Below are positions 26,424 to 27,763 of a DNA stretch of 64,000 bases, piece by piece. Source of the stretch: Escherichia phage HP3.2; sequence record OP978391.1. One strand, given 5' to 3'. The notes below the pieces were generated by a model. The model worked only from the letters and a program-made list of their open reading frames with translations. It was not told where the DNA came from and did not search any database. Both the position numbers and the translations under genes were made by a program. Every line of letters begins with the position of its first letter. The stretch's first letter is position 1.

Positions 26424-27203
26424 TTAATTAAAAATATATACTTCATCAGTTCCATTCTTTTCTTTGGAATGATATATGTTAAAGACGTATTTTTTATTAA
26501 GATGCTTAACATTATATTTTTTAGACCATTCTTTAAGAAGAGTGTTTTCCTTTCCGTGATGCTCTAAAACATTCGACAGTCCAAATTTTATTCCTCTGTC
26601 ATTTAAAGAATCTAAAAGATTTAAAAGGTCTTTTTCTTCTTCTTCTGACCAAAATTTATTATAATCAGCAACTGTTATAAGATATGGAGGGTCCACATAT
26701 ACAAAATCGCCGTCTAGAATTTTGACATCTTTAAAATGCAATGAACTAAAGATTATTTTATCACAATTTTGCTTAAAGTGATTAAAGCGTTTTTCACTAT
26801 TTTTGTTTATAGTTCTTTTTCCAAACGGAGTAGTAAAATTTCCTTTATCGTTTATACGAATCATATTACTAAATCCGTGAAAATGAAGAACATAAAGTAA
26901 AAGAGGATCTCTAGTTTTATTATAATCTTCACGTAATTTCAAAAACTCTTCTTTTGATGTTTTTGATAGTTTGTATTGCTTTATTACTTTTAAAACGTCA
27001 TCCCATGATACATTAATAAGACGCTTATACATTTCAATAATTGGTTCTTGAATATCATTGGCCAATACAGGACCATTGACGTTCAAAGACACTGATAAAC
27101 CTCCACAAAATAAATCCACGAATCTGTCATATTTTGGAAAATGAGGCTTAAGTTCAGGTAATAATGACTGTTTATTACCTGTATACGCGATAGCTCCTAG
27201 CAT
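26424..27203 (-). CDS. dam: Dam DNA adenine methyltransferase
   Basis: 259 aa; DPPY catalytic motif (VYVDPPYLI); matches T-even Dam. Confidence 0.93.
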
Positions 27204-27763
27204 TATATTCTCTCATTTATTGCAGCAAAAAACGAATTATATAATTCTTCATCATATGTATTTGATAGTAATACTAACACGTTTTGTGATTTAGCATATT
27301 CATTAAATCTTGCTTGGATGGTTGGATTATCAGTAAATGATTCTCTTTTTGTCCATTTATTACGTGGATAATATCCGCATGGCAAAAAATCTAATATCAT
27401 CAATGACACAGGGTTTTCAGTTTTTGTGTATTCTTTTAATTTCTCTTTATCTTCTAAATATATTCCAACCGAATCAATAGCTGTACCTCCACCAACTTGG
27501 TGTTTAATTTCAATTATATGCTTTTTACCGTTGCGAGAAATAACAATATCAAATCTTCTAGTACGCTTCTTAGTTATAAAATTAGAACAAAACAAATTAT
27601 TTGATTTTTCAGTATCATCGGTTAAAACCATTTTTTCTTGATAACTAACTGAACAATCAGTGAAATATTCTTTTACTTTATTAAGTATGAAATTTTCAAC
27701 TACGGCAGATATTTTATATGAATCTCCGTTTAAAGCCATTTCATGCACAATTTTATTAATCAT
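27203..27763 (-). CDS. Hypothetical protein, 186 aa, with PD-(D/E)xK-like motif; candidate nuclease
   Basis: [21 protein letters not shown] (D-x12-E-x-K); stop overlaps dam start; own early promoter upstream; very AT-rich. Confidence 0.55.

Follow-up and report, generated by a model that had tools for sequence, protein, structure and literature searches.

Why does a T-even phage carry a DNA adenine methyltransferase? T-even Dam is the textbook "orphan" methyltransferase, non-essential and of a benefit to the phage that was never clear. The question is raised anew by a locus in Escherichia phage HP3.2 (record OP978391.1), of which a 64,000-nucleotide stretch, referred to here as the window, was analyzed: dam, which shares its neighborhood with the genes for the gp56 dCTPase and the gp61 primase, is immediately preceded by a 186-amino acid open reading frame (ORF) that begins with ATG on the minus strand. 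We found that this ORF is a real gene under purifying selection and that it encodes, as judged from a predicted structure, a small PD-(D/E)xK nuclease fold of the size of MunI with conserved catalytic residues. Its linkage to Dam is obligate and mobile, and in T4 the nuclease alone was lost. We propose that the nuclease and the coupled Dam form a phage-borne type II restriction-modification (R-M)-like cassette that is transferred as one unit between T4-like phages and whose nuclease would be GATC-directed and methylation-sensitive, a reading to which we assign a probability of about 0.55.

A preliminary description of this DNA, made from its sequence alone, had suggested that the ORF is PD-(D/E)xK-like and carries a D-x(10-15)-E-x-K core, with the proviso that the motif might be fortuitous. 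The core is found as D72-x12-E85-x-K87, within residues 69-89. Comparison of nine full-length homologues (27-63% identity) showed that all four canonical catalytic residues (E23, D72, E85, and K87) are invariant, along with V39, Q42, R69, I73, I75, H82, H88, Q89, the stretch G93-T-A-I-D-S98, L109, P118, S120, and D125; an acidic residue on a helix, the position occupied here by E23, is the usual fourth active-site residue in PD-(D/E)xK enzymes. The ratio of nonsynonymous to synonymous substitution rates (dN/dS, Nei-Gojobori) between the window gene and its relatives was 0.16-0.37 where dS was unsaturated. An AlphaFold2 model built from six family members (mean predicted local distance difference test score 80.3, predicted template modeling (TM) score 0.79) places a helix at residues 15-33, strands at 38-47, 67-77, and 80-88, a helix at 95-104, and a strand at 119-124. 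This order contains the alpha-beta-beta-beta-alpha-beta core of PD-(D/E)xK enzymes; the first helix carries E23, strand 2 carries D72, and strand 3 carries E85 and K87. Significant Foldseek matches were exclusively PD-(D/E)xK nucleases; the closest were true restriction enzymes, and the whole protein superposes on an active 202-residue restriction enzyme. Matches to Can2 and Card1 cover the nuclease domain only, and a reading of the protein as a CARF effector was dropped because no CARF domain is present. Because the D/E/K residues are invariant down to 27% identity and are placed on strands 2 and 3 by a confident fold prediction, we conclude that the motif is not fortuitous and that the suggested assignment holds, with a predicted fold that is nuclease-like. 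Two further statements of the preliminary description could be read directly: the strong A+T richness of the ORF (G+C content 27.5%, compared with 28.7% in dam and 34.6% in the whole window) and the overlap of its stop with the dam start (TAATG). The glycine-rich stretch G91-S98 might serve as a DNA-recognition element, and the protein as a whole would be expected to cleave DNA.

At the sequence level the family is new, in that it is not in Pfam and belongs to a PHROG of unknown function, although a small restriction-like nuclease with a cognate methylase is, as a kind, well known. No curated sequence family was reached at threshold by the nuclease. The best Pfam match was DpnII (PF04556; 16.8 bits, E 4.5e-3), under the 23-bit gathering cut-off; four of the nine family members matched it independently (best E 8.3e-5), and the top PADLOC match was the DpnII-like REase_II model PDLC03548 (E 9.1e-5; best family member 5.3e-6). 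In the Pfam alignment, the match runs from position 152 to 235 of a 278-position profile, and the phage protein has no more than about 27 residues ahead of it. When the phage family was compared by hhalign with an alignment of 15 DpnII-family proteins, the match had a probability of 36.9% (E 3.6e-4) and covered the core only, pairing E23, D72, and E85 with the invariant DpnII residues E152, D201, and E214, and K87 with N216. (The DpnII query used to collect these proteins was validated by its 335.7 bits on PF04556 and its 99% identity to database protein P0017.) We rejected membership in the DpnII family on the grounds of the Pfam score, the hhalign probability, and an architecture of about 280 residues of which the phage protein lacks the N-terminal half; the resemblance agrees with a GATC enzyme but points to one weakly. 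Neither the single protein nor the family profile matched any solved structure by sequence at E <= 10, and an NCBIfam search returned noise only.

The family is tiny and confined to T4-like phages in all informative contexts. When 1.84 billion representative proteins were searched exhaustively with HMMER, 11 were recovered, a set of 5.8 billion proteins added nothing beyond the same family, and two loci were found in IMG/VR and three in JGI metagenomes. Neither 185,579 bacterial and archaeal genomes nor 72,556 plasmids contained a relative, so there is no bacterial R-M relative from which to borrow a specificity. The gene is present in 163 phage records, nearly always as a "hypothetical protein" and once as a "putative restriction endonuclease" (phage Shinka), and full-text literature searches yielded no paper on it. 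The window comes from a Tequatrovirus, and its nuclease-dam segment is 100% identical to that of phage HP3 and 99.8% identical to that of ACG-C40. Among the proteins retrieved, two (P0008 and P0010) are chimeras in which the C-terminal part of the nuclease is fused to an unrelated N terminus (epimerase-like and AsnA-like, respectively) and are probably assembly artifacts; P0016, a highly repetitive protein of 765 residues that matched the family profile in seven stretches (E 1.7e-7), was judged spurious.

Among the comparisons made, the one that concerns the partner gene is decisive. A Dam-type methylase gene lies immediately downstream of the nuclease in all eight lineages with readable context, and in seven of these the two genes overlap or abut. 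The junction is a TAATG overlap in the window and in L011 (63% nuclease identity to the window), an abutting TAA-ATG in L007 (55%), an ATGA overlap in L006 (49%), and an overlap of 7 nt in the KPV15-like Klebsiella phages (L012/L020, 42%), 35 nt in L004 (P0011, ~35%), and 20 nt in L005 (P0014, ~27-41%). The exception is T2 (99%), in which a frameshift leaves a 13-nt gap before dam; its Dam is 100% identical to that of the window (M22342/MH751506). We predict from the TAATG overlap that the two genes are translationally coupled. Methylase identity (100, 72, 71, 64, 61, 54, and 52%) drops along with nuclease identity, and the two genes have therefore diverged together. All partner methylases keep the segment FSNMIR...PFG(K/R)R, which we take, from T4 Dam-DNA structures, to be the GATC-recognition hairpin.

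The pair occupies three genome positions: the 61/56 interval (window and T2), the denB/ndd interval (KPV15 group), and a site directly upstream of rIIA (L005). The 56-61 locus of RB69 contains neither gene; there, a single small ORF on the opposite strand, ORF029w, separates gene 56 from gene 61. A linked pair at three positions indicates that nuclease and dam behave as one mobile cassette, with which their shared low G+C content fits. To count how often the genes occur together, we used listed or sampled records together with coverage counts: the two are contiguous over the full 1340 bp in 148 phage records, about 33 records have an intact dam with the nuclease deleted as in T4, and Dam occurs by itself in other Straboviridae, Slopekvirus among them. 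No nuclease without Dam was seen among the records listed or sampled. In these records the methylase is sometimes alone and the nuclease never, an asymmetry predicted by R-M logic. The preliminary description had likened the arrangement to an R-M or methylation-linked nuclease pair, a comparison that the conserved linkage supports. In the Slopekvirus phage Kpn35c1 (L015, 2190-3340), Dam is ~55-57% identical to that of the window, no nuclease is present, and an overlapping hypothetical ORF of 100 amino acids precedes the gene.

If the nuclease accompanies dam so regularly, how did the laboratory phages T4 and T2 come to be without an intact copy? Compared with the window, T4 is missing 548 bp between two copies of the 8-bp direct repeat ATCACAAA; dam is kept, and the last ~28 nuclease codons persist as an unannotated remnant. 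The nuclease ORF extends 80 nt past the T2/T4 indel, and this tail is homologous to the C termini of relatives at other loci. We therefore rejected an insertion in T2 in favor of a deletion in T4, given the flanking repeats, the ORF tail retained in T4, and the homology of that tail at other loci. The same endpoint (query position 474) recurs in about 33 phage records, which points to a single deletion event. T2 is damaged differently. A T-run (window 27224..27229; T2 nuclease region L002, 2501-3046) is one base shorter in T2 and T4 than in the window, so that the T2 nuclease ends in ...NSFLLQ* after 181 residues and is uncoupled from dam. The window allele, whose ...FFAAINERI matches the family consensus ...FFxAIKERL, is thus the intact form. 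Miner and Hattman, writing in J Bacteriol in 1988, reportedly described the DNA 5' to T2 dam only as a 536-bp insertion that had no homology to T4. This is the same DNA as the window segment, although we measure a T2/T4 length difference of 547-548 bp and read their insertion as a T4 deletion that removed most of a nuclease gene. The T2 record of 1988 (M22342) covers 640 bp upstream of dam and annotates no gene there, and in it the nuclease ORF changes frame near codon 37 and is thereby divided in two, which may account for the ORF having been overlooked.

T4 dam has a "potential" promoter, P(E)17.40, annotated in X01416 (L014 613-641), that spans the deletion junction, with its -35 element from the left flank and its -10 element from the ORF remnant; the 548-bp deletion may thus have created the T4 dam promoter. 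In the window, a Shine-Dalgarno sequence and a promoter-like site precede the nuclease, and the latter falls within the segment deleted in T4. An early promoter of its own had been claimed for the ORF; the site is plausible by position but not demonstrated, because a promoter scan found 16 sites against 17.2 expected from shuffled sequence and hence no enrichment. The best promoter-like match of the region lies inside the nuclease ORF and could drive dam transcription independently of the nuclease promoter. Coordinates of these and the other features are collected in the table.

Table. Features of the nuclease-dam locus in the window and the basis on which each was assigned.
Feature	Position	Strand	Basis or remark
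dam, D12-class GATC-type N6-adenine DNA methyltransferase	26424..27203	minus	PF02086, E 6.5e-51
Nuclease ORF, PD-(D/E)xK, type II restriction-endonuclease-like (predicted)	27203..27763	minus	PHROG 8706, "unknown function"
TAATG, overlap of nuclease stop and dam start	27201..27205	minus	TAA 27205..27203 shares its last A with ATG 27203..27201
Downstream ATCACAAA copy inside the nuclease ORF (codons ~158-161)	27283..27290	minus	Right end of T4-type deletion
Promoter-like site inside the nuclease ORF, TGGACA-18-GATAAT	27326..27355	minus	10/12 match; ~120 nt upstream of dam
G91-S98 (GGGTAIDS), Gly-rich stretch and helix N terminus right after the catalytic strand	27470..27493	minus	G93-S98 invariant; helix 95-104
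Catalytic core motif R69-Q89	27497..27559	minus	D72 on beta-strand 2; E85-x-K87 on beta-strand 3
E23 codon, invariant acid on the first long helix	27695..27697	minus	Conservation; helix 15-33; hhalign pairing with DpnII E152
Shine-Dalgarno GAGGA, 7 nt before the nuclease ATG	27771..27775	minus	Sequence reading
Promoter-like site of sigma-70/T4-early type, (G)TTTACT-17-TATTAT and TG extension, 5' of the nuclease ORF	27789..27817	minus	9/12 match
Upstream ATCACAAA copy	27831..27838	minus	Left end of T4-type deletion
Terminator-like hairpin (27897..27878) and T-run, downstream of gene 61	27868..27897	minus	Separates gene 61 from the nuclease-dam unit

How would such a cassette work? In the R-M-like reading, nuclease and dam would be transcribed early from the promoter just upstream of the nuclease. 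Dam would methylate the GATC sites of the phage's own DNA, and the nuclease would cleave DNA in a metal-dependent manner through E23, D72, E85, and K87, at or near GATC that lacks Dam methylation. The likely targets would be the DNA of competing phages or plasmids, Dam-negative hosts, and recombinants that have lost dam; attack on the latter would make the cassette self-stabilizing.

Several observations weigh against this reading. The DpnII similarity is below threshold by the scores given above, an Asn stands opposite K87, and the N-terminal part of DpnII (~150 residues) is absent, so that GATC specificity is deduced from the partner gene. The enterobacteria that serve as hosts have Dam, and the DNA of T-even phages carries glucosylated hydroxymethylcytosine, so that the enzyme has no evident target in the host and the phage no evident need to protect itself. 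The nuclease gene precedes the methylase gene and appears from the junction to be translated with it, and a mechanism that would delay the nuclease is not visible. The nuclease is dispensable in the laboratory, since T4 has lost the gene and the T2 allele is frameshifted at its C terminus, and decades of work on T2 have, as far as we know, brought no report of a GATC endonuclease. GATC avoidance does not help to settle the specificity. Among 4-bp palindromes, GATC shows the strongest depletion in the window (75 observed against 211.5 expected from trinucleotides, a ratio of 0.35), but RB69, which has no dam at 56-61, is even more depleted (28 against 173.7 in L021, 1-50000, a ratio of 0.16), and we rejected the depletion as evidence for specificity.

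The host paradox is removed if the protein is a Dam-linked PD-(D/E)xK nuclease with a different logic, one that cuts methylated or hemimethylated GATC in cytosine-containing host DNA or that nicks, as MutH does, for recombination-dependent replication. In the former variant, glucosylated hydroxymethylcytosine would spare the phage DNA and Dam would mark or complete the substrate, and Dam-positive hosts would no longer be immune, as they are to a methylation-sensitive GATC enzyme. The fold, the catalytic residues, and the obligate linkage to Dam fit this explanation equally well; the KPV15-like pair adjoins denB, a gene for a host-DNA endonuclease, and the nuclease gene appears by its upstream signals to be expressed early. 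Close structural or sequence similarity to MutH, of the MutH/Sau3AI family of GATC nickases, was not found. We consider this explanation unlikely, if more probable than the two that follow.

Two others seem to us to have less in their favor. A free-standing homing-type endonuclease that spreads itself during co-infection, with dam hitch-hiking by co-conversion as in the manner of T4 Seg and Mob enzymes, would account for a mobile gene, but hitch-hiking does not predict a partner from one and the same gene family in all loci and over a nuclease identity of 26-63%, with the coupling conserved. Moreover, the "empty" T4 allele is a deletion that keeps the last ~28 codons rather than a clean nuclease-free site, no GIY-YIG or HNH motif was found among Pfam matches, and the closest structures are true restriction enzymes; we regard homing as improbable. 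Least probable of all, and very doubtful in our judgment, is a catalytically dead or non-nuclease derivative, for instance a DNA-binding regulator of dam expression or an accessory or specificity factor of Dam. The dispensability of the gene in T4, the tail-frameshifted T2 allele, and a position upstream of the methyltransferase that recalls the control proteins of some R-M systems would suit such a role. Invariance of all four canonical catalytic residues is unexpected for a degenerate nuclease, however, no helix-turn-helix domain is present in the protein, and the superposition on an active restriction enzyme extends over its whole length.

The R-M-like cassette, if correct, bears on the question with which we began. 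If Dam was ancestrally coupled to a restriction-like nuclease, and still is in most natural Tequatrovirus isolates, then self-protection from the phage's own nuclease becomes a testable reason for its existence, one that would serve competition between phages or addiction to the cassette, and the pair would represent a rare R-M-type module in a virulent phage. A bolder form of the idea, which we offer tentatively and with less conviction than the cassette itself, is that T-even Dam is the protective half of a self-mobile R-M weapon directed against Dam-unmethylated GATC DNA in rival phages, plasmids, and dam-less recombinants. Were this true, the damaged laboratory alleles (deleted in T4, frameshifted in the tail in T2) would explain why the system went unseen, and such enzymes would be responsible for part of the extreme avoidance of GATC in relatives without Dam, RB69 for instance. 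At the dam locus, T4 and T2 are not typical, which matters for the annotation of wild T4-like therapeutic phages by reference to T4, and the new restriction-like family may yield a compact GATC-directed enzyme.

Two neighboring features were also noted. A hydrophobic ORF of 66 amino acids (27863..28063, plus strand) lies opposite to the main reading direction between the nuclease promoter-like site and gene 61, has a strong AAAGGAGGA Shine-Dalgarno sequence, and at its own end shares 4 nt with the end of gene 61; it belongs to PHROG 2024 (E 5.8e-31), matches RB69ORF029w in position and strand, and is intact in T4, where it is unannotated in NC_000866. The soc/gene 56 interval (window 25379..25845; T4 L003 607-1281) contains the homing endonuclease gene segF in T4 and two small ORFs, T2_028 and T2_029, in T2; the window appears T2-like here, with for example a 66-amino acid ORF at 25645..25845 on the minus strand. 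We speculate that SegF-driven co-conversion in crosses could affect which allele upstream of dam spreads.

Among known systems, MunI (C^AATTG), of the EcoRI-like class of small type IIP enzymes, is one of the closest, with 202 residues to the 186 of the phage nuclease. PvuII has 157 residues, and the phage protein is in the size range of a complete small restriction enzyme. DpnII/MboI (PF04556) is the top curated Pfam family, and its methylases DpnM and M.MboI are of the same D12/Dam GATC class as the phage partner; the phage segment RFDIVI...IIEIK...GGGT aligns with RFDFVI...LIEVN...GSGS of DpnII. In contrast to the DpnII system, the phage protein has no counterpart of the N-terminal half, has Lys87 where DpnII has Asn216, and is encoded in a different gene order with a single methylase. 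The chlorella virus enzymes R.CviAI and M.CviAI (GATC) are a precedent for a lytic virus that, while infecting, uses a site-specific endonuclease with a cognate adenine methylase, in that case on non-self DNA. The arrangement here is likewise a virus-borne endonuclease with an adenine methylase, its activity being predicted, but chlorovirus proteins in BFVD match it weakly (TM score 0.32-0.37), and with a Dam-positive host and hypermodified phage DNA the host chromosome cannot simply serve as the target. Like the SegA-G and MobA-E genes, finally, the nuclease gene is an optional, A+T-rich insert between conserved early genes that is polymorphic among T-even phages; unlike them, it does not encode a GIY-YIG or HNH fold and it has an obligate methylase partner, and the T4 allele at the dam locus is the decay product of a once intact gene rather than an empty homing site.
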